64,000 bases of DNA, taken from the NCBI GenBank assembly GCA_963681965.1, contig OY820579.1, forward strand, positions 3,360,001 through 3,424,000, read 5' to 3'. Below are positions 7,469-62,900 of the stretch, one piece after another. The stretch is from a bacterium. GTDB taxonomy: Bacteria > Electryoneota > JAOADG01. Numbering within the stretch: the stretch's first letter is position 1; each line of letters opens with the position of its first letter. Below the pieces are notes generated by a model. That model was given only the letters and a program-made list of their open reading frames with translations. It made no database searches and had not been told where the DNA came from. The translations under genes were made by a program, and so were the position numbers.

Positions 7469-7541
7469 GCCACCTTAGCTCAGTTGGTAGAGCAGCTGAT
7501 TCGTAATCAGCAGGTCTGCGGTTCGAGTCCGCAAGGTGGCT
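7469..7541 (+). tRNA. tRNA-Thr(CGT), CCA not encoded
   Basis: Acceptor stem GCCACCT/AGGTGGC, D-arm TAGCTCAGTTGGTAGAGC, anticodon arm GCTGA-TTCGTAA-TCAGC, T-arm GGTTCGAGTCC. Confidence 0.95.
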
Positions 7542-43502: not shown

Positions 43503-46435
43503 TGAGTGAGCAATTGCTTGCCTCACTTGCGGCACAACTAAAAAAACTGGGAAGTACCGGCGAAAAAGCCGGTAACCCAACTCCGAAGCTGGTTCCCGGA
43601 GAGCGTCGCGAAATTGCAATCATCTTTCTCGATCTTAAGGGGTTCACGGCACTATCGGAAAAGTTGAACGATCCGGAAGCGATCAATGCGATTATCAACG
43701 GTCCGAGCGGTATCATGACGGTGCTGCATCAGATCGTCGAACGGCATGGCGGTTATGTCGACAAGTACGAAGGCGATCTGATTATGGCACTGTTCGGTGC
43801 GAAAGTCGCTTCGGAAAACGACGCCTACCGCGCCGTTAGTTGCGGCATGAAGTTGATCGAAGCAGTGTTGACGGTGGACGAAGCAGTCTCTGAACTTGGG
43901 ATTAGGATTGGTGCCCGGTGCGGAATCAATTTCGGTTGGGCGACGTTTGGTCCTGATCCATCCGGTCACCACACTGCGATGGGTACGGCAGTCAATGTCG
44001 CATCGCGTATGGAATCGAGTGCGGCGGTCAACAGCGTACAGGTCACCAGCAGGGTCGTGAAAATGACTCACGACAGCTTTATCTGGGAGGATCTCGGCGG
44101 TATCGAAGTGAAAGGTGTGGCAAAACCGGTCCACTCTTATCGACTGATCGGCTACGGCGATATTCATAAAGCGCGCTGGGAGCGGACATCGTGGATGCAG
44201 TCGGTACCATTGATCGGACGTCAGGACGAATTCGATTTTCTTTACCAGCATTGGTTATCGCTCGAAGAAGAAGTCGAGGAGAATCCCCGTGGTGGTGCGA
44301 TCCACAAGATGATTGGATTGCGTGCCGATCCCGGGTGCGGTAAATCGCGATTGGTGTTCGAATTGGTGAAGCGAGTCCAGCAAGAAAATGAGATAACATT
44401 CTTGCGCGGTCACACGATGTCGGTGGCACAACCACCGTTTTATCTCTGGGCGAATCTGTTGCGCAATTTCTTCCGGATTGTCGACGATAAACATGAGCAT
44501 ACCCGGTTCGAACAACTCTATACGGAATTCGGCTCAGCCTATGGATTGACGGATAATGCCGATTTCAACAGTTGTTATCCTTATCTATGTCATATCCTCG
44601 GATTTCATGTCGAAGAATTGTCGGAACTGGCAGATCGCGTTTTATTTCAGCAAACGAAGATGGCAATCCGCAATTTCATGCAAGTACTGGCACAGCAACT
44701 GCCGAAGCTGGTGATCTTCCTCGACGACCTGCACTGGCTCGATTCCGGATCGCAGGAAATTCTCGAATTCGTGCTGCTGAATTGCGATGCCACGCGACCG
44801 ATGTTTATCCTCACGACATTTCGACCGGATCGCGACGACGGTCAGCAGTTGGAATTGGATCTTCACGATTCGTATGTCGAATACCATGAGCGGATGCTGA
44901 CACCATTGACGCTGGAGCTGACGCACCAGCATGTGAAAGCGATGCTGGCGGCTTACAGCCCTAATACCGAAGCGTGCGATCTCGATCCAGTCGTGGTGGA
45001 GCGGATCTTCGACTTCTCGCAAGGTAATCCATTTTATACGGAAGAATTTGTGCTGGATTGGCTTGAGACCGATGCCTTGCAATTGAATGAGAACTGCTGG
45101 TCGCTGGCGCCGAACCATCACGGCGATCTCCCGAACAGCATTACCAGTTTAGTTCGGTCGCGGGTCGATCGACTGCCGCTGGAAGAGAAGCAAGTATTGC
45201 AGCAATGTTCGGTCATGGGACTGGATTTCTCGCTGCGGTTATTCCAACGGGTGAAGGCGAAGCTGGCGCAATCGGATAATGCCGAGCCACTGTTGAATGG
45301 ATTGGTGTTTCGCGATTTTCTCCGCAATGTTCGATCGTTGAAAGAAACCTCATACAAATTCAAGCTGACAATCTCGCGGACGGTCGCCTACCAGACACTA
45401 TTGCGGGAGAATCGCACACTCTTGCATCGCCTGACCGCCGAAGCGCTGGAAGAGCTGCTCGCGACCGATACCGATTATTACGCCGGAGTCTTGGCGGAAC
45501 ACTGGTTCCATGCCGGTGATCTGAACAAGGCGTTCGATTACGGTATTCGGTCGGTGAAATATTTACGACGAGCGTGGCACAATCGCGAAGCGGTCAAGCT
45601 GGGTGAGGCGATCCTGAATTGGTTCCCACCACACGACGATTATCGCCAGAATCCACACGCACAAACATATTTCGATTTGATTTATCAGCTCGAAACGATC
45701 TATGCGATCCTGGGCAAGCGAACCGAGCAGAAGCGACTGCTCGATCAATTGCAGGAATTCGTATTGATCCCGCCATTCGACGACCATGCCGCAGCAATCG
45801 TGAATCGGATGGGAAATTATCATTATTTAACCGGTGATATTTCGGATGCTGCCGAGTGTTACGAGCTGTGTCGGGAAGTGGCACAGGCGCGTGGCGATAC
45901 GAAGATTGCAGCGCAAGCGATCGGAAATCTCGGATTGATCTCGATTCAATTCCGTCGTATCGACGAAGCCGAAGCGCTCCTGAAACAATCGATCGAGATG
46001 TTGCACTCGATCGACGATCAGCACGCGGTGAATGATTTCGAGTTGAATCTCGCCGGGTTGTTTTACGAGAAGAAGGAACCGGCGGAAAGCGAGCGCTTGC
46101 TGGAACAATGCCGGGAGCGGTCGAAACGACTGCACGATCGGAGCGCCGAAGCGCGGTTATCGATCAATCTCTCAACGCTGAATCTAGAATTGGAGCAATT
46201 CGATTCAGCGATCGAAAATGCGACGATTGCATATCGTATCTTCAACGAAATCGGGGAACGAAAGAGCGAAGGGGTTGCGTTGGCTAATTTGGGGCGCGTC
46301 TATTTGCGAAAGGAGAATCGGGAAAAGGCGCGCGAGTGTCTCGAACTTGCGTTGACGATCCACCGCGAAGTGAACGACAGCAGTGCGGAAAAACGAACAC
46401 TTAAAAATTTAACCGAATTGAGTGGCAATACTTGA
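43502..46435 (+). CDS. Class III adenylate/guanylate cyclase - STAND (AAA) ATPase - TPR protein
   Basis: FLDLKGFT, DKYEGD, GTAVNVASRME (cyclase); DPGCGKS and IFLDDLHW (Walker A/B); GNPFY; C-terminal TPRs. ATG overlaps the upstream TAA; GGAGG RBS. Confidence 0.9.
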   Translation: MSEQLLASLAAQLKKLGSTGEKAGNPTPKLVPGERREIAIIFLDLKGFTALSEKLNDPEAINAIINGPSGIMTVLHQIVERHGGYVDKYEGDLIMALFGAKVASENDAYRAVSCGMKLIEAVLTVDEAVSELGIRIGARCGINFGWATFGPDPSGHHTAMGTAVNVASRMESSAAVNSVQVTSRVVKMTHDSFIWEDLGGIEVKGVAKPVHSYRLIGYGDIHKARWERTSWMQSVPLIGRQDEFDFLYQHWLSLEEEVEENPRGGAIHKMIGLRADPGCGKSRLVFELVKRVQQENEITFLRGHTMSVAQPPFYLWANLLRNFFRIVDDKHEHTRFEQLYTEFGSAYGLTDNADFNSCYPYLCHILGFHVEELSELADRVLFQQTKMAIRNFMQVLAQQLPKLVIFLDDLHWLDSGSQEILEFVLLNCDATRPMFILTTFRPDRDDGQQLELDLHDSYVEYHERMLTPLTLELTHQHVKAMLAAYSPNTEACDLDPVVVERIFDFSQGNPFYTEEFVLDWLETDALQLNENCWSLAPNHHGDLPNSITSLVRSRVDRLPLEEKQVLQQCSVMGLDFSLRLFQRVKAKLAQSDNAEPLLNGLVFRDFLRNVRSLKETSYKFKLTISRTVAYQTLLRENRTLLHRLTAEALEELLATDTDYYAGVLAEHWFHAGDLNKAFDYGIRSVKYLRRAWHNREAVKLGEAILNWFPPHDDYRQNPHAQTYFDLIYQLETIYAILGKRTEQKRLLDQLQEFVLIPPFDDHAAAIVNRMGNYHYLTGDISDAAECYELCREVAQARGDTKIAAQAIGNLGLISIQFRRIDEAEALLKQSIEMLHSIDDQHAVNDFELNLAGLFYEKKEPAESERLLEQCRERSKRLHDRSAEARLSINLSTLNLELEQFDSAIENATIAYRIFNEIGERKSEGVALANLGRVYLRKENREKARECLELALTIHREVNDSSAEKRTLKNLTELSGNT

Positions 46436-46880: not shown

Positions 46881-47974
46881 TATACCATTTCTTGAAAATC
46901 GTGTCGCATTGTGATTTACTCTCACACTCGTGTTACAGATTTTACAATTTCTGGTTGATTGAGTAGCTGTTGTATTGCCCATGTTACCCGATCTCTTAGT
47001 TCTTCTCTGGACTTGCTGTACCAATGGTTGAAGTAATGCTCTTTGATATACAACCACAATCGTTCTATCGGGTTGAGATCGGGTGAATAGGGTGGCAAGA
47101 ATATTGGTTGAATATGATGCCAGTTTAACGATTTAATCTTGTGCCAACTGGCATTGTCCAGCACCATTGTTACCCTTTCGCCCTTGGTATATTCGGCGAA
47201 GTGGTCAAGGAAAATCTGGAACAGTTCCCGATCCACTTCCGGCATTTGCAGCGAAAACAACCGACCGGATAAGGGTTGTACCGCGCCCAAAATGTTTTCC
47301 CGCAAATGGGTGCCGGTAAAGGGAACCGTTTGTCGTTCTCCTTTCCGCATCCAGCGTCGGCGCGGGCGTGGATCGCCGGTAATGCCGCTTTCGTCGTAGA
47401 ACCAAATCCGATTGGGATCGCTGGCAAGCAGCGACGACAGCAGTTCTGTGAAAGCCAACCGGGCCTCGGCATCCTGTTTTGCCGGCCAGGATCGCGGCAT
47501 ATTCAAGGCAAATCGTTCATCGCGAACAAGACGGGCGAGCGTGGAATAGCCCAATTCGATGCGTAGTTCGCTACGCAATACGCCATGCAACTTGCGTAGT
47601 GTCCAGTGTGTCTGTCCGTGCTGCTCGGGATGGGTAAGCCAATCGACAACCAGAAACCGTTGTTCTTTGTTAGCTTTGCGCGGTCGTCCCGGTCGCGGTA
47701 TCCGTTTCAAACGGTCAATGCCACCGGCGTTCCAATGCTGAACCCACCGCTGTAAAGATCGCGGTACAACCGACAACACTTGACAAACTTGATTGTCCGG
47801 TAACCCTAACAAGAGCATTTTAATCCCTTGAAAGCGACAGTGCTCGTCATGGTCAACCGAACAACGAAGGGCTTCTTCGATCTCGTCCAAAGTACCATTC
47901 GCAGGATTAGGAGATAAAGGTCGCATGAAATAAAGATAAGAAACAATGCGACACTATTTATGAGAAACGGTATA
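46881..47974 (-). mobile_element. Intact IS630-family insertion sequence (~1.09 kb) with TA ends
   Basis: Imperfect TIRs TATACCATTTCTTGAAAATCGTGTCGCATTGT / TATACCGTTTCTCATAAATAGTGTCGCATTGT. Confidence 0.92.
46922..47926 (-). CDS. IS630-family DDE transposase
   Basis: N-terminal HTH, PRPGRPRK, FYDES, VLDNASWH, LPPYSPDLNPIERLW. Confidence 0.95.
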   Translation of the reverse strand: MRPLSPNPANGTLDEIEEALRCSVDHDEHCRFQGIKMLLLGLPDNQVCQVLSVVPRSLQRWVQHWNAGGIDRLKRIPRPGRPRKANKEQRFLVVDWLTHPEQHGQTHWTLRKLHGVLRSELRIELGYSTLARLVRDERFALNMPRSWPAKQDAEARLAFTELLSSLLASDPNRIWFYDESGITGDPRPRRRWMRKGERQTVPFTGTHLRENILGAVQPLSGRLFSLQMPEVDRELFQIFLDHFAEYTKGERVTMVLDNASWHKIKSLNWHHIQPIFLPPYSPDLNPIERLWLYIKEHYFNHWYSKSREELRDRVTWAIQQLLNQPEIVKSVTRV

Positions 47975-48062: not shown

Positions 48063-51000
48063 TTACGCTGATCCGATTGGTTTCTTAAACGTGTCTAGCG
48101 TATCTCGAACCTTTATTGCTAATGTTTGGATTGAAAAAGGCTTCTGGATAAAATTTACCCCTTTATCGAGAACTCCATGATAAGCTATCACATCTGCTGT
48201 GTATCCAGACATGAATAAATACTTCAGATTGTCGCGATGTGCGATTAATTTCTTTGCAAGATCTCTGCCATTTAAATTCGGCATGACTACATCGGTAATA
48301 AGCAAATGGATATCTTCTTCGAATTCCTCGGAAAGTTGAATCGCATCAAGCGGTTTCGATGCAATTAACACCCGATAGCCAAGTTGCTCAAGCATTAGCT
48401 TTGTCAGGTTCAAGATCGTTGGCTCATCTTCCACGAGCAGGATCGTTTCGTTACCGTTAGGCGGAGGAACAAGTGAATCGTTTTCTATCTTCGACGATTT
48501 GCTTACATATCTCGGTAAATAAATTTTAAAAGTTGTTCCCAATCCTGGTTCACTATATACATTGATAAATCCATTGTTCTGCTTGACAATACCATACACT
48601 GTTGCTAGACCAAGACCAGTACCTTTGCCAATATCTTTAGTTGTATAAAACGGTTCAAATAGTTTTTTTAATACTTCTTTGTTCATCCCACAGCCATTAT
48701 CGCTGACGGTCAGCAGGACAAATTCTCCACTGACTGCCTCCGGATGCTCGGAACAATAAAAATGATCGACGAGAATTGTATGTGTTTCGATCGATATTTT
48801 TCCGATATCATTGATTGCATCTCGAGCATTGACACAAAGATTCGCCAATATTTGATCGATCTGCGAAGGATCGATATTTACCTGCCATTCCGCTGCTCCC
48901 GGTAACCAAGTAAGATCGATATCTTCACCGATTAATCGTCGCAGCATCTTCAGCATCCCTTCCACAGTCTCATCCAAATTGAGAACTTTGGGATTGACCG
49001 TTTGCTTACGTGCGAACGCCAGCAGTTGATGCGTTAGATTTGCCGAACGTTCGGCTGCTTTCTGAATTTCATCTAAATTGGCAATAACACGATTAGGCTG
49101 ATCAATTTGGCTCAGAGCAATCTCCGAGTGTCCTAAAATTACCCCAAGCATATTATTAAAATCATGCGCAATTCCACCAGCCAATTGACCGATCGCTTCC
49201 ATCTTTTGTGCTTGTCGAAGCTGTTCTTCCAGACGTTTATGTTCAGTGATATCTTCTTTTACAGCAACAAAATGAGTGATCGTACCCGATCCGTCAAAAA
49301 TCGGTGATATCGAAGCAAACTCCCAATAGAGTTCGCCATTTTTTTTCTTGTTATGGAATTCTCCGCGCCACTCCATTCCAGAAGTAATCGTATCCCACAA
49401 CCGTTTGTAGGTTTCCGGCGATTGTTCACCCGATTTTAACAGTCGAACGTTTTTTCCGATGACTTCCGACTGTAAATATTCGGTTATCTCGGTAAATTTT
49501 GGATTGACATACTCGATATTTCCGATAGTATCCGTAATCACAATGGAAGCCGGACTTTGTTCGACTGCATGGGATAGTTTTCGCAGTGATTCCTCGGCAT
49601 GAATTCGCTCAGTAATGTTTTCGACGATTCCTTCCAGAAACGCCGGGTGCCCCACAGCATCGAATACCAGTTTTACATACAAATTGACAGTAAATTCAGT
49701 TCCATCATTTTTTCTGAATTGGGTTTGAAATTGGATATTATTCGTCGAATTCAGAAGCTGCGCGATTACTTGGCGACGATCTTCGGTATGGACATACACT
49801 TGCTTGCCGATATCCTGGATTTCGTGGATTACCGTGTCGGGCGAAACAAAACCTAACATCTGAGCCAACGACGTATTCACTTCGAGAAATCGACCTTCGA
49901 TTGTGGAGCGAAAAATCCCCAGTGGAGAGTTATTGAATATTGTTCGATACTTTTCTTCACTTTCGCGAAGTGCTTCTTCAGCGTGTTTTCGCTCAGTGAT
50001 ATCGCGACCGATCGCCATTGCACCGATTATTATATCATCGTTGTTGTACTCCGGAACGAATCGAATGTTAAATGTTTGGCTCTCACATGAAGAATTTCTA
50101 GTATTGAGTTCCAATTCGTCAGAAAGACCACTGTCAATCACTTTTTTGAGTTTTATAAAGTACTGATCAAGATCGTCGGACAAAGGATGTTGTTCCGAGA
50201 GATTTTCTGGTGGTAAAAACCCTTCAAATGATAGAATTGAACTCAAGTTACGATTGTTATAAACCTCTTGACACAGCGTATTGTACCGGACTATGATATC
50301 AGGCGAACTTTCCGCAAGCGATCGATACTTATGTTCACTTTCAATTAGTTTTTGTTCGGCTTGTTTGCGTCTAGTGATATCACGGGTTATTGTAATTATT
50401 CCTGACGGATGGAGTTGACTATCCCGCACGAACGATGCCGCGAGTTCAACCCATTTCGTCGATCCATCCTTACAATACTCCTCAAGTTCAAGTAATACTG
50501 TTCTCGATGGATCGACATTTCCGGATTGTTCCAATACCATTTGATCGGAATAGACTGATTGCACCTTTTGTAGCGAAGCAGGAGTCAAAATCCGATCCAA
50601 CGATTCCGATAATGCTTCTTGAACAGTAATACCACGTAATTTCTGAATCGACGGACTGACAAAAACCGGCTTCAGATTCATGTCAAATACCGATATCGTA
50701 TCGGCAGTGTTATCAGCAATCAGTCGGTAACGGTCTTCACTTTCGCGGATTGCTTGTTCCGCAAGATCTTTCTTCGCCCTTACTCGCAATGCAGTTATTC
50801 CAAAAGTCAAATCACCGGCTAGCTCTTTCAAAGTGTTTACTTCTTTTAAATTGAATGCATTGGGTACTGATGAATAAACGCTCAGAGTACCAATCGTCTC
50901 ATTTTCACCAATCAGTGGCATTACTACCATCGATTTACAACCTTGTTTACTCAATGTCTTTTGCCACGGCTCGGTAAACAATTGCGATTCGAAATTATGC

Positions 51001-52070
51001 TCGACAAATGGGTTTCCCGACGCAATGGAAATTTGCACTGGACCCTGATTGGGATCGAGATCGGCAAAATTCACTCGATTAGAAATCGAATTTTCATTAT
51101 TGAATTCGCTCTGCGCGACTATATGCATCGTATCGATGTCATCGTGCTCAATGTAATCGACTCGCGCATATAGGTAATCCCCGACTTCAACAACAATCCG
51201 GCATACTTCCGTCAATAGCGATTGTTCATCGCTAAAGTGAATTAAAGCTTGATTGGAGGCACTTAGCATATGTAGCGTACGATTTACTCTGAGTAATTCA
51301 TCTTCAATCAATTTCTGGTCTTCCAAAAGAGACAGTAACGCCCGTCTGGATTGCTCGGATTTGTCCAATAGCGATTGAATTTGTTCCTCGTTTCTTCGCA
51401 ACTCTGCGTTGGCGAGTTTTAGATGTTCAGTTCGATCAGCAACTGTTTTTTCCAGTGCGGTATTGGACAATTTTAATTTTTCATCTAGCGCCTTCCGGAT
51501 TTCCATTTCCTTTTCGAGATCGTCATACGCTTTTTTCAACTGGGTATGCCCATGGATCTCATGTTTCAAGACAAGTGCGACATAGTTGAAAAATGTCGGT
51601 AATTGTTGAGCTAACTCTTGCATCGATAAGTGCAGACTCTCGATTTTGAGCACACCGATTAAATCGGTTCCGACTATCAGCGGTACTATCCAGGTATATG
51701 CTTTGGAAAATTCTGGTGTGAGCATACGGGTATCACTGAAAGTATGTTCAAACTCAAGCGGTTCGTGAGTATCGAATACTTGTTTAACACGATCATCATC
51801 CAGAGTCTCGATTTGTTTTTTGATCCCTGCGATGTCGACATAATTTAAAATCTGATCGATGTGGTAGATGAGTACTAGATTTACTCCACCGATCACATCG
51901 CCGATCGCATGCAAGATGTTCTCAACGGTATTCTCTAATCCCGGTACGGAGCTGATCCGATTCATCAGTTGAATGATCAACTGAAGATTCGATTTTTCTG
52001 CAGCAAGCTTGTTGAGCCGATCTTCTAGATTTACAAGCTTTGACTGTGAATTATACTTATCGTTGATCAT
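48063..52070 (-). CDS. Cytoplasmic hybrid sensor histidine kinase (GAF-like, GAF, 4 PAS, HisKA, HATPase, REC)
   Basis: AGGIAHDFNN, NLCVNARDA, DNGCGM, FEPFYTTK..GTGLGL, LLVEDE..TDVVMP..IQKPF. Confidence 0.93.
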   Translation of the reverse strand: MINDKYNSQSKLVNLEDRLNKLAAEKSNLQLIIQLMNRISSVPGLENTVENILHAIGDVIGGVNLVLIYHIDQILNYVDIAGIKKQIETLDDDRVKQVFDTHEPLEFEHTFSDTRMLTPEFSKAYTWIVPLIVGTDLIGVLKIESLHLSMQELAQQLPTFFNYVALVLKHEIHGHTQLKKAYDDLEKEMEIRKALDEKLKLSNTALEKTVADRTEHLKLANAELRRNEEQIQSLLDKSEQSRRALLSLLEDQKLIEDELLRVNRTLHMLSASNQALIHFSDEQSLLTEVCRIVVEVGDYLYARVDYIEHDDIDTMHIVAQSEFNNENSISNRVNFADLDPNQGPVQISIASGNPFVEHNFESQLFTEPWQKTLSKQGCKSMVVMPLIGENETIGTLSVYSSVPNAFNLKEVNTLKELAGDLTFGITALRVRAKKDLAEQAIRESEDRYRLIADNTADTISVFDMNLKPVFVSPSIQKLRGITVQEALSESLDRILTPASLQKVQSVYSDQMVLEQSGNVDPSRTVLLELEEYCKDGSTKWVELAASFVRDSQLHPSGIITITRDITRRKQAEQKLIESEHKYRSLAESSPDIIVRYNTLCQEVYNNRNLSSILSFEGFLPPENLSEQHPLSDDLDQYFIKLKKVIDSGLSDELELNTRNSSCESQTFNIRFVPEYNNDDIIIGAMAIGRDITERKHAEEALRESEEKYRTIFNNSPLGIFRSTIEGRFLEVNTSLAQMLGFVSPDTVIHEIQDIGKQVYVHTEDRRQVIAQLLNSTNNIQFQTQFRKNDGTEFTVNLYVKLVFDAVGHPAFLEGIVENITERIHAEESLRKLSHAVEQSPASIVITDTIGNIEYVNPKFTEITEYLQSEVIGKNVRLLKSGEQSPETYKRLWDTITSGMEWRGEFHNKKKNGELYWEFASISPIFDGSGTITHFVAVKEDITEHKRLEEQLRQAQKMEAIGQLAGGIAHDFNNMLGVILGHSEIALSQIDQPNRVIANLDEIQKAAERSANLTHQLLAFARKQTVNPKVLNLDETVEGMLKMLRRLIGEDIDLTWLPGAAEWQVNIDPSQIDQILANLCVNARDAINDIGKISIETHTILVDHFYCSEHPEAVSGEFVLLTVSDNGCGMNKEVLKKLFEPFYTTKDIGKGTGLGLATVYGIVKQNNGFINVYSEPGLGTTFKIYLPRYVSKSSKIENDSLVPPPNGNETILLVEDEPTILNLTKLMLEQLGYRVLIASKPLDAIQLSEEFEEDIHLLITDVVMPNLNGRDLAKKLIAHRDNLKYLFMSGYTADVIAYHGVLDKGVNFIQKPFSIQTLAIKVRDTLDTFKKPIGSA

Positions 52071-53113
52071 TTCTTCACAACTTTCTCGACACTACCAAAT
52101 TCGAACGCAGCTTCAAGCATTGTTCGAATATTCTTCTCGGGAATACAGTATGGCATGACTCCCGTTCCGAAGAGAAATTTGCCTCCGGGCAAACCAGCCT
52201 CAATGATCCTTTTTACTTCGCTTCGGATAATTTCCCGAGACCAGTCAATGAGTCGGATGTCATTGATGATACCACAAGTAAGCGCTCGCCCTGCAAGGAT
52301 CGTCTTACTTTCAATAATATCGTCGAAAGGTCCTAAATAATATGCTTTGATGCCCGTTCGATCGATGACCTGAGCAATTATCGGGTTGAGTTGTGATGTT
52401 CCGGCATAATACACTAATCCCGGTACGCCAGCACCTTGAACATCTTTCTCAATCCATGGCAGCGAAACCTCCTGGAAAAACCGAAATGGAACGGTATCAG
52501 TCGAACCGAACGGGTTGGAATAAACCAGTACATCGGCTCCAGCGTTGCGATAGGCAACAATCTCTTTCACAAAAAAATCATGACACTTGTTTAACAGCTC
52601 ATCACGTACGGTTACCGGTCCCCAAAAGAGCAATTCCATCCATTTGTCCATGCCCATTAATATTGCCGGTAACGACATCGAGGAAGTGATGTAGGCACAG
52701 ATCGGATACTTGCCGCCGACCTCTTTTTTAAGAATATGGAGGCATTTCAGACCTTCCGCGAATGCGGGATGAGATGTTAAATCGTCCGGTATCTGAAGAT
52801 GAAGGATATCGTCATATGAGTTGATTACCCATTCTTCGACATTCGGTGGTCCATCGTTAGAAAAAAGTATTTTTCGGCAGCCCAGCAATTCCGCTTCTTT
52901 ACCAACGTAAAAAAGACTCCAGACATTGTCGTAACCATATTTCTCGCGCATTGCAAGTTGAGCCGTAGCAACTAATTCGCCATCATTGTAATATTCCTTC
53001 AGCGCTATTCCCAACTCTTTCGCACCTTGATCCAGCAAATTGCAGAATACTGGAATTCGATCGATAATTGAACCATCGATTGCGGCTGTGAGACGTTCCA
53101 TTCCGGTTGTCAT
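52067..53113 (-). CDS. UroD/MtaA(MtbA)-fold protein (methylcobamide:CoM methyltransferase-like, degenerate)
   Basis: ERLTAAIDG..DRIPV, KYGYDNV, EAELLGC, AGADVL, IPEKNIRTM typical of the UroD/MtaA fold. Confidence 0.8.
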   Translation of the reverse strand: MTTGMERLTAAIDGSIIDRIPVFCNLLDQGAKELGIALKEYYNDGELVATAQLAMREKYGYDNVWSLFYVGKEAELLGCRKILFSNDGPPNVEEWVINSYDDILHLQIPDDLTSHPAFAEGLKCLHILKKEVGGKYPICAYITSSMSLPAILMGMDKWMELLFWGPVTVRDELLNKCHDFFVKEIVAYRNAGADVLVYSNPFGSTDTVPFRFFQEVSLPWIEKDVQGAGVPGLVYYAGTSQLNPIIAQVIDRTGIKAYYLGPFDDIIESKTILAGRALTCGIINDIRLIDWSREIIRSEVKRIIEAGLPGGKFLFGTGVMPYCIPEKNIRTMLEAAFEFGSVEKVVKK

Positions 53114-53781
53114 GACTGCACCTCATGAATGAGTTTGGTGATTACCTTTCCGGCACTTATTCCGTCCGCAGCCCACGCATCGGCTTTTACCTGTAGAAAG
53201 AGATTTGGATCGAAGCGGAAAGCCGCTCCTCCCACGATAATTTTTATTCGATGTTCGAGATCCATTTCTTTGAGAATTTGTCGAACCTTCAAACAACCAT
53301 TTTCACCGCGAGCAGTGTGTACCATCATTGCCGAAATACCGATAACTTGAGCATCGTGAGTTAACGCTTCTGAAACGAAACGCTCAGCCGGCACGTTGAC
53401 ACCCAAATCGAAGCACTCGATCATTTGTGCCCGAAGGCAACCCATTACAATTTTCTTACCAAGTGTATGAAGGTCGCCTTGCGCATTACCGATTACAATT
53501 CGACCTATGGTTTCAAACGGTTTTTGAAATAATGGTATCAATTCATTCGAAATTTCAGATACGATTTGTGAAATCATGAAGTACTGTGCAAGGCTCATAT
53601 CGATAGTCTTATTAGCAATTGTTACTTTTAACTCTAATGCGGGTATGATTGCTTCGAAAACGATCACCTCAGGCAAGATTCCTTCTTCCAAAGCTTCACG
53701 AACGACCCGGATAGCTTGGTTTCGATTCGTGTCGATTAAAGCTTCGTTGAATGAATCAATGAGTTTCTGTAGCCGATTCAT
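53110..53781 (-). CDS. Corrinoid (B12-binding) protein, MtaC/MttC-like
   Basis: Cap domain plus GDLHTLGK (DxHxxG), DLGVNVP, GISAMM, IVGGA. Confidence 0.9.
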   Translation of the reverse strand: MNRLQKLIDSFNEALIDTNRNQAIRVVREALEEGILPEVIVFEAIIPALELKVTIANKTIDMSLAQYFMISQIVSEISNELIPLFQKPFETIGRIVIGNAQGDLHTLGKKIVMGCLRAQMIECFDLGVNVPAERFVSEALTHDAQVIGISAMMVHTARGENGCLKVRQILKEMDLEHRIKIIVGGAAFRFDPNLFLQVKADAWAADGISAGKVITKLIHEVQS

Positions 53782-54830
53782 TATTGACTCTGATATTTAG
53801 GGGGTTCTTTTATTCGAAGTAACAATTCATTTACTTCCTGTTTTAAATCTAGAATACGCTCTTCTCGATTCAGCGTAACATCGGACCACCGTTGCAATTC
53901 ATCGAAGCGTTTCTGGAGTTCGATCTCGGAACGTCTGCGATCGGTGATGTCTCGAACTACCGCCAGCACTTCCTCGGTCGACAATGCGATGATGCGTGCC
54001 TCGTAATAACATCGTTGACCTTTCATAATCAGATCGTACTCAAAAGTCACGACTTCGTTTACATTATGCGCTCTATCGATAGCTTCCGACGCTAATCTTG
54101 ATACTTCCGGTGGCAATATGTCGTAGTAGGTTTTATATAAAAATTTGTTTGGAGGAACATATAGTTCCATATTTTCAGGTTTTCGGTAATCGGTGATAAC
54201 GCCGTCTTTCGCGATGCGAAACAAAAGATCCGGAACAGCATTAATGATCGCGCGGTTTTCAACTTCGCTTTTACATAGATTCTGGAATATCAGCAAACTG
54301 GTTAACGAATCGCATAGACGATGACCAATCTCATCGAATAATCTTTCTTCCTCCGGTGACCAAATCCGCGCGTAAGCGCACTGATGAATTCCAAAAACCC
54401 ATGGTTTTCCAACCTTTGGATAAAGCGTCGAAGCTATTTGCGATTGAACTGCAAATCCATCGGCGATCGAAGCAGGAATTTGACTCTCTAACTTCTGACT
54501 GAATTTCACCGGTGTACTTGAAGACAGCAGCGATCGGAATACTTGTACCGTTTCCAGATCGGTCGGAATCTCGATACCGATTGCAAATGCCCCAGGATAT
54601 TCCGGACGGGTGCGTTCCATCGGTACACTCCAAGTCACGGTATCAGGGTCACACGGATAAACCAGCCAGGCGCGGTCGCAGCTGAAAATCGACAATACTT
54701 CATCGAGCACATTGTGCATCATCTGTTCAAGATCGTTCACACCCTGTATCGCTCGATTGATTCGATCCATGCTCTCGTAGAAACACAATTCACTGATCTG
54801 TACATCCTGGGATAGCATTTTTTCCCCCAT
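53781..54830 (-). CDS. GAF-PAS sensor protein with C-terminal coiled coil and no catalytic output domain
   Basis: CDRAWLVYPCDP..FGIHQCAYARIW (GAF); AIINAVPDLLF..VRDITDRR (PAS); ends REERILDLKQEVNELL. Confidence 0.8.
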   Translation of the reverse strand: MGEKMLSQDVQISELCFYESMDRINRAIQGVNDLEQMMHNVLDEVLSIFSCDRAWLVYPCDPDTVTWSVPMERTRPEYPGAFAIGIEIPTDLETVQVFRSLLSSSTPVKFSQKLESQIPASIADGFAVQSQIASTLYPKVGKPWVFGIHQCAYARIWSPEEERLFDEIGHRLCDSLTSLLIFQNLCKSEVENRAIINAVPDLLFRIAKDGVITDYRKPENMELYVPPNKFLYKTYYDILPPEVSRLASEAIDRAHNVNEVVTFEYDLIMKGQRCYYEARIIALSTEEVLAVVRDITDRRRSEIELQKRFDELQRWSDVTLNREERILDLKQEVNELLLRIKEPPKYQSQ

Positions 54831-54989: not shown

Positions 54990-55469
54990 TCATACAGCAA
55001 TACTGCTGGTACTGGTAATGATGTCGATATCTTCCTTGTTTGATAAAACACGATCGATGTCCAGTAGGAGAATAACGTGCTCCTTCATTTTTCCGATTCC
55101 AGTAAGAAATGAACTGTCGAATCCATTTCCCCAATTGAGCGGCGGTTCGATATTGTTGGGATCGATATTCAATACTTCGGTAACGCTATCAACCATCATC
55201 CCAATTTGAATTTCCTTGAAATCGACAACTACGATACAGGTTTCTTCCGTTGCGTTTACAACCGGTAATCCAAATTTCGCTCGCAAATCCACAACAGGAA
55301 TCACTTTGCCGCGTAGATTCACAATACCCAATATGTACTGTGGTGTTTGAGGCACCTTAGTAATAGTCATTAGTTTGATTATTTCCCGCACTTTCAAGAT
55401 TTCAATGCCGAATAATTCAGCGGCAATTTGAAATGTGAGAAATTTGCCAATTGGCGGTGGATTGATCAT
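54990..55469 (-). CDS. cheW: Chemotaxis coupling protein CheW
   Basis: FLTFQI..FGIEILKVREI, ILGIVNLRGKVIPVVDLR, GMMVDSV. Confidence 0.93.
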   Translation of the reverse strand: MINPPPIGKFLTFQIAAELFGIEILKVREIIKLMTITKVPQTPQYILGIVNLRGKVIPVVDLRAKFGLPVVNATEETCIVVVDFKEIQIGMMVDSVTEVLNIDPNNIEPPLNWGNGFDSSFLTGIGKMKEHVILLLDIDRVLSNKEDIDIITSTSSIAV

Positions 55470-55521: not shown

Positions 55522-58518
55522 TTAAAAATCTCGTAAATCGGCTTCTTCGAGTTGAACGATCTCATTTGGACGAACCAGACGCGAAGTATTTCGATTTGGA
55601 GTTTGCCCTAATAAATTGCGACGATCTCGCGACGATGGTTGAACCGACAGCGATTGTTTCCGTGCCATATTGATCGTTCCATTGTGTCCGTTGTGTCCAT
55701 TGTGATCAAATCGACCTTGTCTGGAAAGATGAAAGGATTCAATAAGACTTCTTTCTTCGTCGGCTTGACTTGACATCGTTTCGGCAGCACTAGCCGATTC
55801 TTCGCTATTCGCGGCATTTTCCTGTGTCACGGCATTCAACTGTGAAACAGCCGTTGCGACTTGATTAATCCCTTGCGATTGCTCCTTCGAAGCCACAGCA
55901 ATACTTTCGGCGATTCCGTTTACATGGGTGATATCTTTCAGAATTTCGACAAAATGCTTTGCAACAGTGCTGGTAATCTGCACTCCTCCTTCGGCATTCT
56001 TGCGGGATTCTTCGATTAACTCCGAAGTATTCTTTGCTGCAGCAGCACTTCGTTGAGCAAGATTGCGAACTTCTTCCGCAACAACTGCAAATCCCTTCCC
56101 GGCTTCTCCGGCACGTGCAGCTTCCACTGCGGCATTGAGAGCCAGCAGATTTGTTTGGAACGCGATTTCGTCGATGGTTTTAATAATCTTGGCTGTTTGA
56201 TCGGCTGACTGTTTGATCTTTCCGATTTCCTTCGTCATCTGGTCGACTGCTTGATTGCCTACTTGCGCATTGTGAAGAGTGTTATCCAATAACGACTTGG
56301 CATCTTGCGAGCTGCTGGCATTTTGCTTGGTCATTGCCGACATTTCCTCAAGCGTTGCCGAGATTTCTTCCAACGACGATGCCTGTTCCGATGCACCTTG
56401 TGCCATCATTTGACTACCCCTGCTAACTTGCTCGGCACCGGTCATTACCTGTTCCACTGCTACTTGAACCTGTTGTAATCCATCATCAAGATTTCCAACT
56501 GCGGTGTTAAGGGCTTCCTTGATACGCGCGTAGTCACCCCGGTATTCACCATTCATACGAGCTGCCAGATCCTTTTCGGCGATTCGTTCCAATACTCTCG
56601 TGGCTTCATTGATCGGGTTGGTGATTGCATCCAAGACCGCATTGATGCCCTGCACCATATCCTTGAAGCTGTAAGAGAATTTCATTGCATCGCCACGAGC
56701 TGCCAACTCTCCAGCTTGTGCTTTCGCGACCAAAGTGATGATTTCATCGTTTAGCGAAAGCATATTGGCTTTTACGTGATCGATAGCTTCGGTAATTCTT
56801 GCTTTTTGTCCCGGTAACCGATCCATATCGATCGAAAAATCACCTTGCGCATATTTACCTACAACTTCCACAACACGCATCTTAACAGAAATATGGGATT
56901 GAACAAGTTTATTGATGCGCAATGCCATTTCGGCATAGGAGCCTTCGAATTTCGATACCGGCATTTCGAAATCGAGTGCTCCCTTATCGTGTTGTTGTGA
57001 CATTTCAGCCTGCGCCAGCAATAAATTGTTCAAGGTGTCGATGCATTGATTCAGATTGTTCTTAATTGTATTGAAATCACCATAGTAAGTATCGGTGATC
57101 TTCGGTGGAATACTGCCGTGAGAAATCTTGTCGACGTAATCGGCTGCGACATTCAACGGATTGATCACAGCATCCAGTGTATCGTTCACGCCCTGAACGA
57201 TCTTGCGGAAGTCGCCTTGATGCTTCGAAGCGTCGGCACGCGTTGCCAATCGACCGGCTACGGCTGCTTGAGCCAACATATTGGCATCTTCAACCATCAG
57301 ATTTACCGCGATAATCGCTTGGTTCAGGTTATTCTTTATAACATTGAAGTCACCGTTGTAATTGTCACTGATTTTCATTGGAATATTGCCTTTCGAAATT
57401 CTGTCGACATAATCGGCGGCGATATTCAATGGACCGATTACGGCATCTAATGTATCGTTGACACCTTGAACGATTGCTTTGTAACCACCTTGGAATCGTT
57501 GCGTATCGCCACGTGTACTTAATCGACCTTCGACAGCAGCTAAGGTGAGTAACTCGGCTTCTGCTACCAATCCCTGTAAATTAATGACGGTTTCATTCAG
57601 AGCCGGAGCGATTTCATCTTGTTGATCGGCAGGTGGAATATTTACTTTCAAGTCACCATGACTGATTTTCTTCAATCCATCGACTAGATTGACGAGTCGA
57701 TCGGTAAACGAATCCATGGCTCGTGCTAAAATCCCGATCTCATCACCTTGTGTCATATTCAATCGTGCTTGAAGATGACCTTTCTCCATTTCTTGCATCA
57801 TTTCCAAACCCTTTTTGAGAGGTCGAGTGATGCTTATCGTTAGAATTGACCCTAAGACCAGCGCGAGAATGGCATCGAAAATAATCAACATCCACGTGTT
57901 TCGAGACCCACGCTCTGCAATAACATCGGCATTGGCACAGAATTCATCGATCTGTTTCTCGTTCAACGAACAAATTGCATCCAAATGCGCTGTTACACTG
58001 TTGCGCAGTGGTCGAATATCTTCGCCCATCTTCCAAATCTGTTTATCGACTTCTTCAATCCGAGACGCATTCTTTTTAGGATCGCTGTTGATTAACTCGT
58101 CGCGATTGTGATTAATCGCGATAAACTTGTCATCAAGTAATCGCCATACTTTCACTACCGGTAACATCTGTTCCCACTCCTGCTTCTCTTCGGGAGAATG
58201 TGAATATTTTTCGTAATTGGTTTTCGAATCTTCGAATTTCTTCCAGCAGGTTTCCATTTTACCATACTGCGAGAATCGCTCCTCGCCAACCATTCGCCTA
58301 AGCATCAACGCTCGTTCTTTTGTGTTCAGATCGTACAGTGCCGATTGCATTTTAAGCGCCGACATTGAACTTGGAGTTAGTTCGGATCCGACTTTATCAA
58401 GTGCCGACATCGTCGAATTTTGAACCGACCCTGCGTAAAAACCTACAACAATCGTAATGACAACGATGGCGACAAAACCGGCTATCAGTTTCGTTCCAAT
58501 TTTCACAATGCCTAGCAT
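55522..58518 (-). CDS. Membrane methyl-accepting chemotaxis protein (4HB sensor, poly-HAMP, MA domain)
   Basis: Two TM helices flanking a helical periplasmic domain; repeated HAMP units; [34 protein letters not shown]. Confidence 0.95.
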
Positions 58519-59339: not shown

Positions 59340-59984
59340 TTAATTGTTTCCTGTTGAATTGCCGATTAATCCGTGATCCAGCGCATAACGCACCATCTTT
59401 ACGTCGTTGTCGACATGAAACTTTTCCCAAATTCTGGTGTGGTACGTACTCACGGTTTTTGGACTGATAAACAATTCATCGGCAATCTCCTTAATTGACT
59501 TTCCGGACGAGAGAAGCTGTAATACAGCATACTCGCGATCGGTTAATTCGGTATGCGAATGCTGAGTCGCGTAACTAATTTCCGCTGCAAGACGCTCAGC
59601 GGTTGCAGCACTGACGTATCGCTCGCCATACAGTATTTTCTTGACAGCTTTGTACAATTCTTCCGGTGCTGTTTGCTTATTTAAAAAACCGTTCGCTCCC
59701 AATTTCAACACCCGGATCGCCAATTGTTCCTCCGGAGCACTACTTAAAACCAGTACGGGTAGTTTCGGATACAAGCGCCGAATATCCAGCAAAACATCGA
59801 GTCCGCTTCTTCCAGGCATAAAAATATCCAAAACTAAAATGTCCCAACTTTGTTGCGACAAGCATTCCAACGTTTCAGCAGAATTTCCCGCTTCGCCGAA
59901 TTGAGCATCAGGATATTTATCGACTAGAATCTGAATTAGACCTCTCCGTAATAATTGGTGATCGTCTGCGATTAAAATCTTCAT
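59340..59984 (-). CDS. NarL/LuxR-family response regulator (GacA/UvrY-like)
   Basis: ILIADDH, VLDIFMPG, LTDREYAV, ISPKTVSTY HTH. Confidence 0.93.
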   Translation of the reverse strand: MKILIADDHQLLRRGLIQILVDKYPDAQFGEAGNSAETLECLSQQSWDILVLDIFMPGRSGLDVLLDIRRLYPKLPVLVLSSAPEEQLAIRVLKLGANGFLNKQTAPEELYKAVKKILYGERYVSAATAERLAAEISYATQHSHTELTDREYAVLQLLSSGKSIKEIADELFISPKTVSTYHTRIWEKFHVDNDVKMVRYALDHGLIGNSTGNN

Positions 59985-59989
59985 CGTTA

Positions 59990-62900
59990 TTACTCCTGTG
60001 CATCGATCTTGCTATTGAGTGGAACGGACACGTTGATCGTGGTTCCGATTTGTTGCTGACTCGAAATATCAAAATTACCATTCAACAATAAGGCACGTTC
60101 CCGCATTCCCACCAATCCGATCGACATCGGACTATTCAGTATTTCTGTTGATATTCCTCTTCCATTGTCTCGAACAGTAAGCTCGACATGATCGCAAGTG
60201 TGGACCAGTCTAATATCGACCTGAGTCGCGTGAGAGTGTCGCAATATGTTTGTCAAGCTTTCCTGAAGAATGCGGAAGATGGTGGTTGATGAATTTCGAT
60301 CCGGAGACTGTCCCTCTTCTACGATATCGGTGCGACATGCAATCCCGCAACGGGTTTGAAAATCGTGAGCCAACCATTCCACCGCTGCACTTAATCCAAG
60401 ACTGTCGAGAACTGCAGGTCTAAGTTCGGTAGCGATCTCTTGTACCGAACGAATTGCTTCGTCAGTCATTTGACTCATTTCGATGACGCGATTGGCTAAT
60501 GCTTCCATTGAAAAATTCTTCGATGTATCGCTCATTCTTCCATTCAACCATACTAAATCGATTTTTAATCGTGTCAAGATTTGAGATAATACGTCATGAA
60601 TTTCACGAGCGATATGCGTGCGTTCCTCTTCGCGCGCCACTTGCAATCTTGCAGCCAATGTACGCATTTGATGATGGGAAATTCGAAGCTCTTCCTCGGC
60701 ACGTTTGTGTTCGGTGATATCGCGCGAGATGCCGATAAGTCTAGAAACACGTCCGGTTTCGTCCTTTGCCGGTATTATGACCGATTGAAAACAATGTCGT
60801 CCGCTAGGAAGATCCAATTCAACTTCTTCTTCTATCGGAAGTTCTGTTTCCACACACCGACGGTATTTGGCATTAACGATGGCAGCAACTTCAGGTGGAA
60901 CAGTTTCCTCCTGAGTCTTCCCAACGGAAAAAGATCGGGGAATCCCGGTAGATCGCTCGAGAGCGGGATTAACTTCAACGGTGCGGAATCGTCCGTCATC
61001 GGTTACATCAATCAAGTATAAACTGTCGAGAACATTGTCGAATATATCGCGATACCGTCGTTCACTCTCGCGAATCGCTTCTTCGGCATGCTTGTGTTCC
61101 GTGATATCGCGAAGGAACATGACCAGTTGTCCACTTTCGATGTCGTGATATTTTACACTAACTTCAACATCGAAAACACTGCCATCCCTGCGACGATGTC
61201 TAGTTTCAAAGCGATCTTCACCTTGTTCGATAACCTTGCGAATATGAGTGGCAACATCACTTTTTGATTCGACATCTTCGAGGTCGGAAATGCTCATCTT
61301 GAGGAGTGTAGACTCATTAAAGCAGATCATTCGGCAATAGGCATCGTTGACTTTCAATAAACGACCGGACAAATCCGTCATCCAGAAACCATCCATTGCA
61401 GTTTTGAGGATTGTGCTGTAGAGTCTTTCACTCCGAAGCAGCGCGTTTTCGATCCGTTTACGCTCGGATATGTCCTCGACAATTCCGTCAAGGAAAAGAA
61501 TCCGACCTTCGGTATCGCATACTTTTTTTAAGTAAAGATTGGCGTCGAATTGACTTCCATTTTTTCTGCGGTATTTGTTTTGGATCTGAATCGATTCGTC
61601 CGAGTGAAATAATCGGTCGATTATTAGACTGCGGTCAGTTTCATTCGCATATACTTGTTTGCCGATATCGTGAATTTCATGAATTACCGTTTCGGGTGAA
61701 TCGTAACCGAGCATGTCGGCAAATGCCGGATTGACTTCAAGAAACTTTCCTTCGATTGTCGACCGGAAAATTCCGAGGGCTGAATTCGTGAATATTGTTC
61801 GATATTTTTCTTCGCTTTTGCGTAACTCTTCTTCAATTTGTTTATGATCGGTGATATCTTGCAACGAACCAAAAAGCCGCCGAACATTTCCGACGGAATC
61901 GAATTCAGCATGTCCTCGAGCCAAACATATTCTCATTTCACCGTCAGTTCGGAAAGCGCGTAGTTCCAACTCGTAAGGTGTTCCATCCGACAATGCCTTC
62001 GCTACGGCTACTTTCAACTGAACCATGTCTTCAGGATGGTAGAGTTCGGGATGTTCTGCAAAGGATGGGGCTTTTCCCGCTGGGTTACGATCAAATATCC
62101 GATACAATTCTTCCGACCAAGTCACTGAGTCGGTTGCCACTTCCCATTCCCAACTCCCAATATGTGCAATACTCTCAGTTCGCTCCAGCATAATTTGTTT
62201 ATGCTGAAGTGTTTCTTGAGATAGATCGTTTTGTGCTCTCATTCGCAGAGAAGTGATTCCAAATGCCAGATCGCCAGCAAGTTCCTCAAGCAATCGAATT
62301 TCATCAGGAGTAAATGTATTGGGTTTTGAAGAATAGATATTGAATATTCCAAAAGTAAGATTGCGTTCGTCTTTGAGCGGTAGTGCAATACTCGAGCGGT
62401 AATTCTGTTTCAGCGCATTGTCTCGCCAAGGACCAGCGATCGGATCGGAGTCGAAATCTTGAATGGTCGCGGTTGTTCCACTACGGATCGCCATTCCACT
62501 TGGTCCATTTCCTCGTTCAGTTGCTGCCCAAGACAATTTTGCTCGCTTAAGAAAGCCATCCTCAGCTCCAGCACAACTGACTACTTGTATTGACTTTGCT
62601 TCGTCATTAACAGGATATCCGACCCAAGCCATGCGGTAACCAGCTTCGTCGCACACAATATGGCATATTTCGCTAAGTAATGTTGCTTCGTCTTTCGCGC
62701 GAACCAAGATCTGGTTGCAATTGCTGATTGCACGCAACTCGCGATTCAATAGGTGTAAAGCTTCTTCAGCTTGTTCTTTTTTTGCTTTAGTTCGTAAAGT
62801 CGAGATGCCAAATCCAAGGTCACCTGCCAACTCGACTAAAATATCAACCTCATTTTTATCAAAGGAATTTTTATTGGCAGAGTAGATACCTAGCGCACCG

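Follow-up and report, generated by a model that had tools for sequence, protein, structure and literature searches.

A corrinoid protein and a UroD/MtaA-fold protein as the candidate input module of a B12-dependent bacterial signalling system

Introduction

To our knowledge, the part that vitamin B12 plays in signalling is limited to two forms, ligand of riboswitches and light-sensitive chromophore. Sensor kinases can be encoded beside corrinoid methyltransferase genes, as are MsmS and RdmS of Methanosarcina, which sense via haem and regulate methyl-sulfide methyltransferases; there the corrinoid proteins are the target of the circuit and not its input. Here, we analyse a 64,000-nucleotide stretch of a bacterial genome (contig OY820579.1, positions 3,360,001 to 3,424,000; hereafter the window), in which the genes for a corrinoid protein (P0002) and a UroD/MtaA-fold protein (P0003, the UroD-like protein) run into the gene for a hybrid sensor histidine kinase (P0004). 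The pair recalls the MtaA/MtaC-type systems of methanogens (MtaABC, MtbA, MtsA), with the same two folds in the same pairing encoded by adjacent, translationally coupled genes. Unlike MtaA/MtaC, the pair in the window has no His/Cys/Cys zinc site and is followed by a signalling protein, and its genome has no substrate methyltransferase, RamA or methylotrophic pathway.

Three further groups of described systems share parts with this module. CarH/LitR and the photocobilin-diguanylate cyclase use a B12-binding domain as the sensing element (described in the available part of PMC10979010), but there the domain is fused to its output and senses light alone, whereas the window encodes a separate corrinoid protein with an enzyme-like partner and a GAF reader. 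The split methionine synthase of Phaeobacter inhibens has a DUF1638 protein encoded beside a stand-alone B12-binding protein and needed for its function (Price et al. 2018, PMC5764234, in part), and DUF1638 likewise accompanies the corrinoid protein in 65 of 80 related loci examined here. The Phaeobacter system, as the same excerpt describes it, makes methionine with pterin- and homocysteine-binding methyltransferases and a RamA-like activase; the window differs in having no RamA, a UroD-fold partner, a kinase output and no DUF1638 in cis. Type 1 mlp clusters, according to the sections available of the preprint by Kountz and Balskus (PMC10418091), are a widespread, horizontally spread set of MtaA-like and corrinoid proteins outside methanogens that lack a tetrahydrofolate methyltransferase, and in both composition and wide horizontal spread they resemble our module. 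They differ in carrying two or three Mlps and a Ram/RACE activase, in being mostly from Firmicutes and in their His-Cys-Cys sites, and those sections read them as methyl-sulfur or methyl-selenide metabolism and mention no linkage to sensors, the term 'histidine kinase' being absent.

None of these systems (MtaA/MtaC, B12 photoreceptors, split methionine synthase, mlp clusters) joins these parts with a sensor, and a literature search whose coverage excluded subscription journals and bioRxiv supplements found no published description of the module. Most likely, we conclude, the module is a sensing device based on B12 that has not been described before, as opposed to a nutrient pathway. That it is a dedicated sensory module is probable, and on balance we lean towards a three-step mechanism in which the corrinoid and UroD/MtaA-fold proteins are the input of a cytoplasmic B12-dependent signalling system.

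Operon organisation

Four minus-strand genes, all overlapping by our open-reading-frame calls, occupy positions 48063-54830 of the window:

53781-54830, minus strand: PAS protein P0001, 349 aa (Pfam PAS_4 only, residues 197-300)
53110-53781, minus strand: corrinoid (B12-binding) protein P0002, 223 aa (Pfam B12-binding, E 3e-22, and B12-binding_2)
52067-53113, minus strand: UroD/MtaA-fold protein P0003, 348 aa (Pfam URO-D, E 1.7e-39)
48063-52070, minus strand: hybrid sensor histidine kinase P0004, 1335 aa (Pfam)
51426-52070, minus strand: N-terminal GAF-fold domain of P0004, residues 1-215 (P0124; predicted fold)

The first-pass annotation of this DNA, made from its letters alone, had proposed translational coupling throughout, and re-reading the junctions bears this out: P0001 and P0002 meet at TAATG (caaTAATGaat), P0002 and P0003 at ATGA (cagtcATGAcaa), and P0003 and P0004 at a second ATGA (gaaATGAtc), where the start of P0004 overlaps the stop of P0003. 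By Pfam matches together with a structural model, P0004 begins with the module-specific GAF domain, which is followed by a second GAF, at least three PAS domains, and then HisKA, HATPase_c and REC. Its HATPase_c (E 5.9e-21) and Response_reg (E 3.6e-16) domains identify it as a hybrid kinase, and its HisKA match (E 9.8e-6) scores 26.0 bits against a cut-off of 26.9.

The pairing is conserved across phyla and precedes signalling proteins

A pattern scan covering one genome per species returned 202 relatives, from which 80 loci were kept for neighbourhood counts that rest on our own open-reading-frame calls. These loci come from more than 15 phyla. Their carriers include Verrucomicrobiota, Chloroflexota, Thermodesulfobacteriota, Nitrospirota, Spirochaetota, Bacteroidota, Acidobacteriota and Planctomycetota (anammox), as well as Ignavibacteriota, Lentisphaerota, Hydrogenedentota, Moduliflexota, Eisenbacteria and Alpha-, Beta-, Gamma- and Zetaproteobacteria, and they span metal reducers, iron oxidisers, methanotrophs and anammox bacteria. 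Cultured carriers are Methylobacter tundripaludum SV96, Mariprofundus sp. KV and Methylocucumis oryzae.

In all 80 loci the gene immediately before the UroD-like gene encodes a P0002 homologue, which places the gene order beyond chance; in nine of them, of the Gallionella/Nitrosomonadales type, the two are joined in a single reading frame of about 563 aa. Downstream, 75 of the 80 encode a signalling protein on the same strand. Four of the remaining five loci end at a contig edge, and the fifth has only a convergent kinase. Scanning 56 of the downstream proteins with Pfam revealed signalling domains in 54 (34 with HATPase_c, 2 with GGDEF, 1 with HD and the rest with PAS, GAF or HisKA, some being cut by the end of the locus), while the other two are a bare 268-aa copy of the N-terminal domain and a phosphonate-type binding protein that precedes a HAMP kinase. 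One input joined to varied outputs is the pattern expected of a sensory module. The module has no conserved DNA-binding regulator as a neighbour.

The proposal that the pair is hard-wired to signalling thus stands, on corrinoid and UroD-like genes adjacent in every locus, a signalling protein downstream in 75 and, as described below, a dedicated GAF domain in 59. Two patterns had been named in advance as speaking against a sensory role, namely homologues that keep the zinc ligands and homologues that sit mostly in metabolic operons without kinases; neither is seen among 189 relatives and the 80 loci.

A module-specific GAF domain heads the downstream protein

Pfam has no match to residues 1-215 of P0004, and none of its GAF models matches anywhere in residues 1-280. 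Structural prediction (pLDDT 83.6) places a GAF fold between two long helices in this region, and the top Foldseek matches of the model are GAF domains (4g3k, 3mf0, 8jrc and others, E down to 8e-7). The same domain heads the downstream protein in 59 of 80 loci. Another conserved N-terminal domain, of PAS type, is shared by 13 of the 21 loci that lack it, and is 42-62% identical between Methylococcaceae and Gallionella/Nitrosomonadales-type loci.

To define the family we built a profile from 32 copies and searched 1.84 billion protein representatives, which yielded 469 clusters at E <= 0.001, of which 438 also pass E <= 1e-10; this search superseded a word-based one that had found only 25 proteins. 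Among the matches listed, the domain stands at the very N-terminus in 149 of 150, the exception being P0228. In the window's genome and in 5/5 other whole genomes the profile matches once, at the module. BLASTP of the domain against P0001 and against P0150, a DUF1638 protein encoded elsewhere in the genome, gave no match.

We measured co-occurrence in 101 sampled genomes of one Geobacter-type order. The UroD-like gene is present in 20 of these genomes (24 matches) and the GAF domain in 26 (29 matches), and all 20 genomes with the UroD-like gene also hold the GAF domain. For 23 of the 24 UroD-like matches the GAF domain lies 0.59-0.77 kb downstream on the same strand, and the 24th is at a contig edge. 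Six GAF matches come without a UroD-like gene, two of them at contig starts and four in genomes that lack the gene.

A diverged GAF subclade comprises L094:4868-6616, L095:618-2369 and L096:556-2346, with no corrinoid, UroD-like or DUF1638 gene nearby. Its first member, in genome G089, is by Pfam a GAF-PAS-SpoIIE phosphatase whose gene adjoins that of a class I Trp/Tyr-type tRNA synthetase.

Most relatives have a DUF1638 gene ahead of the sensor

In 65 of the 80 loci the UroD-like gene and the sensor gene are separated by a gene of about 200 aa that encodes a DUF1638 protein; 14 loci have no such gene, and one more ends at a contig edge. DUF1638 is also fused to the GAF sensor twice, once as DUF1638-GAF-PAS (L054) and once as DUF1638-GAF-HisKA-HATPase (P0228), which makes it the likeliest contact point in most relatives. 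Residues C14, H42, C71-H72 and C92 are invariant in 64 module DUF1638 sequences, and these cysteines and histidines suggest a metal site. A search of the cluster atlas with DUF1638 returned DUF1638 clusters only. The available parts of two reports tie DUF1638 genetically to corrinoid enzyme function (PMC5764234; PMC12478193).

The window has no DUF1638 gene in this position, its UroD-like and kinase genes overlapping directly at ATGA. Its system must work without DUF1638, or borrow P0150, the only DUF1638 protein of the genome.

The genome carries a second corrinoid module and no methylotrophic pathway

Assembled as a single 4.24-Mb contig, the window's genome is 99.91% complete. Searches for MtaB, MttB and the C-terminal domain of RamA/RACo found no match in it, so the absence of MtaB/MttB and RamA that had been remarked on near the operon extends to the whole organism. 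Pterin-binding domains occur in only two open frames, of 316 and 1154 aa, the second of which also has a B12-binding match and is probably MetH. There are eight B12-binding domain matches in total and only two URO-D family genes, one per corrinoid module, which is why no canonical hemE is seen.

The second module (G000:C1:3133968-3136956; L084:7969-10957) lies 277 kb away, outside the window, and encodes a corrinoid protein (P0151), a UroD-like protein (P0149) and the 442-aa P0150; a 1710-aa protein with a Por secretion tail follows it. P0149 is 27% identical to P0003 and keeps the MtaA histidine but neither cysteine. P0150 (L084:9629-10957) ends in a Cys-rich stretch (residues 360-430) that has no Pfam match. 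The same stretch ends the DUF1638-GAF-PAS fusion (L054:7998-9872, residues 544-614) and a small protein beside the sensor of another locus (L025:7764-8414, residues 148-210), and it may be an unrecognised output domain. The C-terminal extension of P0150 is of a signalling type. Comparing the GAF profile with the middle of P0150 gave an hhalign E of 0.053 at a probability of 1%.

In locus L011 a module of this second type directly follows a sensor. Given this arrangement and the occurrence of P0150-type extensions at sensors, both corrinoid modules of the organism look sensory. By its gene content, the organism has no methylotrophic pathway for them to serve.

The UroD-like protein has lost the MtaA zinc site and keeps an active-site-like face

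In the PDB, phmmer matches P0003 to MtaA only (4ay7, E 4e-13). Aligned with this structure, P0003 reads VYYAG under lHiCG and FGTGVMP under PGCGiaP, placing Y235, A237 and T317 at the His/Cys/Cys ligand positions. This agrees with the loss of zinc ligands read off by the first-pass annotation. To see how far the loss extends we aligned 189 distinct relatives (119 database proteins plus locus genes). The histidine position holds Tyr in 187, Ser in 1 and Phe in 1, and never His; the second-cysteine position holds Thr in 187, Ser in 1 and Asn in 1, and never Cys; the first-cysteine position holds Cys in 163, Val in 19, Ala in 4 and Gly in 3. By alignment, then, the canonical MtaA zinc site is absent throughout the clade, with one of three ligands kept in most members.

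P0003 misses every curated MtaA, MtbA and CmuA cut-off (TIGR01463, 90.2 against 235.4 bits; NF040654, 69.9 against 400; NF041608, 69.4 against 600). What it shares with the MtaA/CmuA family is a UroD-type TIM barrel and a corrinoid protein as cognate partner. The structure predicted for P0003 (pLDDT 92.2) has MtaA 4ay7 as the top Foldseek match (TM 0.82, 20% identity), and true UroDs are about as close in fold (TM about 0.8, 14-19% identity). The fold is URO-D, as in HemE (uroporphyrinogen decarboxylase); the surroundings of P0003 are a corrinoid protein and a sensor and not haem genes.

Identity across phyla is 59-76%. The near-invariant residues Y141, Y198, F202-G203-S204, Y235, N284-D285, T317 and M320-P321 lie, in the predicted model, where the barrel strands end at their C-terminal side, which is the face that usually carries the active site in TIM barrels. 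Four cysteines (C24, C79, C124 and C177) are kept in 187-188 of the 189 sequences. The pair had been labelled non-catalytic, and we do not retain that label: in the model the invariant residues line the catalytic face, the first cysteine persists in 163 of the relatives, and most relatives carry a DUF1638 gene. Moreover, the accessible portion of PMC10418091 states the thiol-activating His-Cys-Cys sphere for S-methyltransferases of the UroD superfamily and describes O-methyltransferases of that superfamily in which one or both Cys ligands are replaced.

These observations bear on a first alternative, that the pair is an ordinary two-protein corrinoid methyltransferase that acts for instance in demethylation or methyl scavenging and is no more than co-transcribed with, or controlled by, the neighbouring two-component system, the kinase sensing something else via its own PAS and GAF domains. 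An invariant active-site face, very high cross-phylum identity, the O-methyltransferases that lack Cys ligands and the dependence of a real corrinoid enzyme, the Phaeobacter methionine synthase, on DUF1638 would all be expected of such an enzyme (the last two as far as PMC10418091 and PMC5764234 were available), and the kinase does hold many further sensor domains. Each module, however, has a single methyltransferase, and the window's genome has no second one and no RamA, MtaB or MttB. A regulated enzyme also fits poorly with the lack of a conserved DNA-binding regulator, with outputs that vary (kinase, GGDEF, HD) behind a constant input domain, with the DUF1638-GAF fusions and with a GAF domain found once per genome, at the module, in 6/6 genomes. 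We therefore regard this explanation as unlikely.

A second alternative starts from the fold. The system could sense B12 supply or corrinoid type by whether the corrinoid protein is apo or holo, with the UroD-like protein serving not as a methyltransferase but as a chaperone or loader that binds tetrapyrroles. UroD-fold proteins do bind tetrapyrroles, the P0003 model is as close to UroDs as to MtaA, the zinc site of MtaA is gone, the genome uses B12 (the eight B12-binding domain matches above), and the Rfam scan of the window found no cobalamin riboswitch or riboswitch of any other kind. But a simple binding sensor would need neither three conserved proteins nor a DUF1638 with invariant Cys and His, and in sequence P0003 is nearer to MtaA than to the UroDs, both in identity and in its PDB match. 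We consider a supply sensor highly improbable.

A long-form search for the P0003 domain returned only P0152 and no fusion to a sensor, which is weak evidence of absence. P0152 itself, a database protein of 720 aa, carries two URO-D stretches in tandem and shares 57% identity with P0003.

The corrinoid protein retains its cobalamin-binding residues

P0002 has the fold of a corrinoid protein, with a B12-binding domain (PF02310, E 3e-22) and a helical cap (PF02607) whose 22.5 bits fall just below the cut-off of 23. Its DxHxxG motif is intact as DLHTLG, as the first reading of the sequence had it, and D103, H105, G108, S150 and G184-G185 are invariant among 32 aligned orthologues, the ligation residues included. 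The best PDB sequence match is 1y80. P0002 scores 81.3 bits against the model for methyltransferase cognate corrinoid proteins (TIGR02370, cut-off 215.3), and it matches the MtgC, MtbC and MtaC models weakly. Pfam shows no DNA-binding domain in its 223 aa.

Weak matches of P0002 to photocobilin-type chains (8j2y, 8j2w and 8j2x, E 1.5e-7 to 1.8e-3) raise the alternative of a B12 photoreceptor, in which light would photolyse an alkyl-cobalamin and the UroD-like protein, with DUF1638, would re-alkylate it, giving a rechargeable kinase switch. B12-binding domains sense light in CarH and in photocobilins, including a fusion to a diguanylate cyclase (PMC10979010, in the part available), and an enzyme that writes the Co-C bond would explain why a methyltransferase-like partner has been retained. 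Against this, record titles place many carriers in dark habitats (groundwater, a UASB reactor, an anaerobic membrane bioreactor), P0002 reaches only 26.8 bits with the CarH/LitR model NF052513 (cut-off 400), and there is no bilin or globin module. A photoreceptor is accordingly quite improbable in our view.

Proposed mechanism

The sensory reading that we favour can be set out in three steps. The corrinoid protein would hold cobalamin in the His-on form. The UroD-like protein would dock on it as MtaA does on MtaC and set or remove the upper ligand or the redox state of cobalt; the chemistry would most likely be methyl transfer in which a non-thiol compound is the donor or acceptor, and in most relatives the DUF1638 protein, a putative metalloprotein, would help. 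The state of the module would then be read by the N-terminal GAF domain of the kinase and relayed through its PAS/GAF array to HisKA, HATPase and REC. Contact between these proteins is thus assumed by the model. A complex prediction of the corrinoid protein, the UroD-like protein and the GAF domain (residues 1-190) from alignment inputs scored 0.00, was run without controls and is evidence neither way.

We hold the chemistry of the signal more tentatively than the sensory role. It is plausible, though short of an even chance, that the methyl or redox state of cobalt is what the UroD-like protein sets and the GAF domain reads. A fuller version is more speculative: the signal would be an enzyme-written cobalamin state, methyl-Co(III) versus Co(II)/Co(I), which DUF1638 resets and the GAF domain reads to drive kinases, diguanylate cyclases and phosphatases. 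The UroD-like protein might then write or erase this state in response to a methyl donor, an oxidant or light, and a methyl donor, redox change or oxidant, or light would be the candidate external stimuli.

Several observations weigh against this model. A strongly conserved face resembling an active site is just as compatible with an ordinary enzyme, and operons in which an enzyme pair sits beside its own regulator are common. The GAF domain is missing in 21 of the 80 loci. Conversely, 4 of the 29 GAF matches in the order sample are in genomes without a UroD-like gene (G084, G089, G093 and G097), with no module gene within the fetched 7 kb in G084, G089 and G093, so the domain can work without the module. 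DUF1638, finally, is missing in the window and in 14 of the 80 loci, which means either that it is dispensable or that the copy in the window works differently.

If the reading is right, this would be the first corrinoid methyl-transfer module to serve sensing instead of metabolism, and bacteria would also use the chemistry of B12 to perceive their chemical or redox surroundings, feeding kinases and c-di-GMP enzymes. First functions would follow for the very conserved UroD-like clade, for DUF1638 and for a GAF family with sharp bounds (469 clusters). Direct tests of the system are possible, as cultured carriers and short GAF-HisKA-HATPase orthologues of about 485 aa (in L004 and L050) exist.

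Spread and evolution

Only 1 of 79 genomes of the window's own phylum carries the module, making a co-occurrence test within the phylum uninformative. In a quick gene tree of 70 of 81 rows, from which duplicates and short matches had been dropped, phyla are freely mixed and loci without DUF1638 appear at several separate places among those that have it. This mixing, together with a transposase that flanks the operon in the window, fits a history in which the whole package moved horizontally and DUF1638 was lost repeatedly. Three loci (L030, L034 and L039) from metagenome-assembled genomes of Alphaproteobacteria, Bacteroidales and Prolixibacteraceae are near-identical, with branch lengths of 0-0.07, reflecting either very recent transfer or a binning error.

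Neighbouring genes in the window

The operon is flanked on the same strand by chemotaxis-type genes upstream and a transposase directly downstream:

54990-55469, minus strand: CheW (Pfam)
55522-58518, minus strand: multi-HAMP methyl-accepting chemotaxis protein (MCP; Pfam)
46922-47926, minus strand: IS630-like DDE transposase, directly downstream of the operon (Pfam DDE_3 and HTH domains)

CheW and the PAS gene P0001 are 159 nt apart. The first-pass annotation had stressed the position downstream of cheW/MCP; this is correct for the window, but as a general link it fails, since only 6 of the 80 loci have an MCP gene as the immediate upstream neighbour of the corrinoid gene (L005, L022, L027, L032, L038 and L041), with CheW in all but L005. 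A CheW/MCP partnership is suggestive in some lineages and not general, and the two are possible partners.

P0001 had been called a GAF-PAS protein. Its PAS part is supported by PAS_4, while the GAF part has no Pfam or PDB support, the N-terminal 190 residues having no sequence match in either database. Its N-terminal domain (residues 4-188) is found again inside the module-linked sensors of 5 of the 80 loci (L003, L005, L035, L036 and L060). As a separate upstream gene, the PAS gene does not belong to the conserved part of the module.

Scanning the window for promoters and terminators gave sites no more numerous than in shuffled sequence, and its sole Rfam match is a tRNA at 7469-7541 on the plus strand.

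The stretch as a whole is a signalling-gene island. Beyond the transposase and convergent to the operon, positions 43496-46435 on the plus strand encode a 979-aa adenylate/guanylate cyclase-AAA-TPR protein. On the other side, positions 59340-63997 on the minus strand hold a separate two-component pair of a HAMP-PAS-GAF HisKA_3 kinase and a LuxR-type response regulator; this kinase has 1335 aa, the length of P0004 by coincidence, and one GAF domain is 40% identical.

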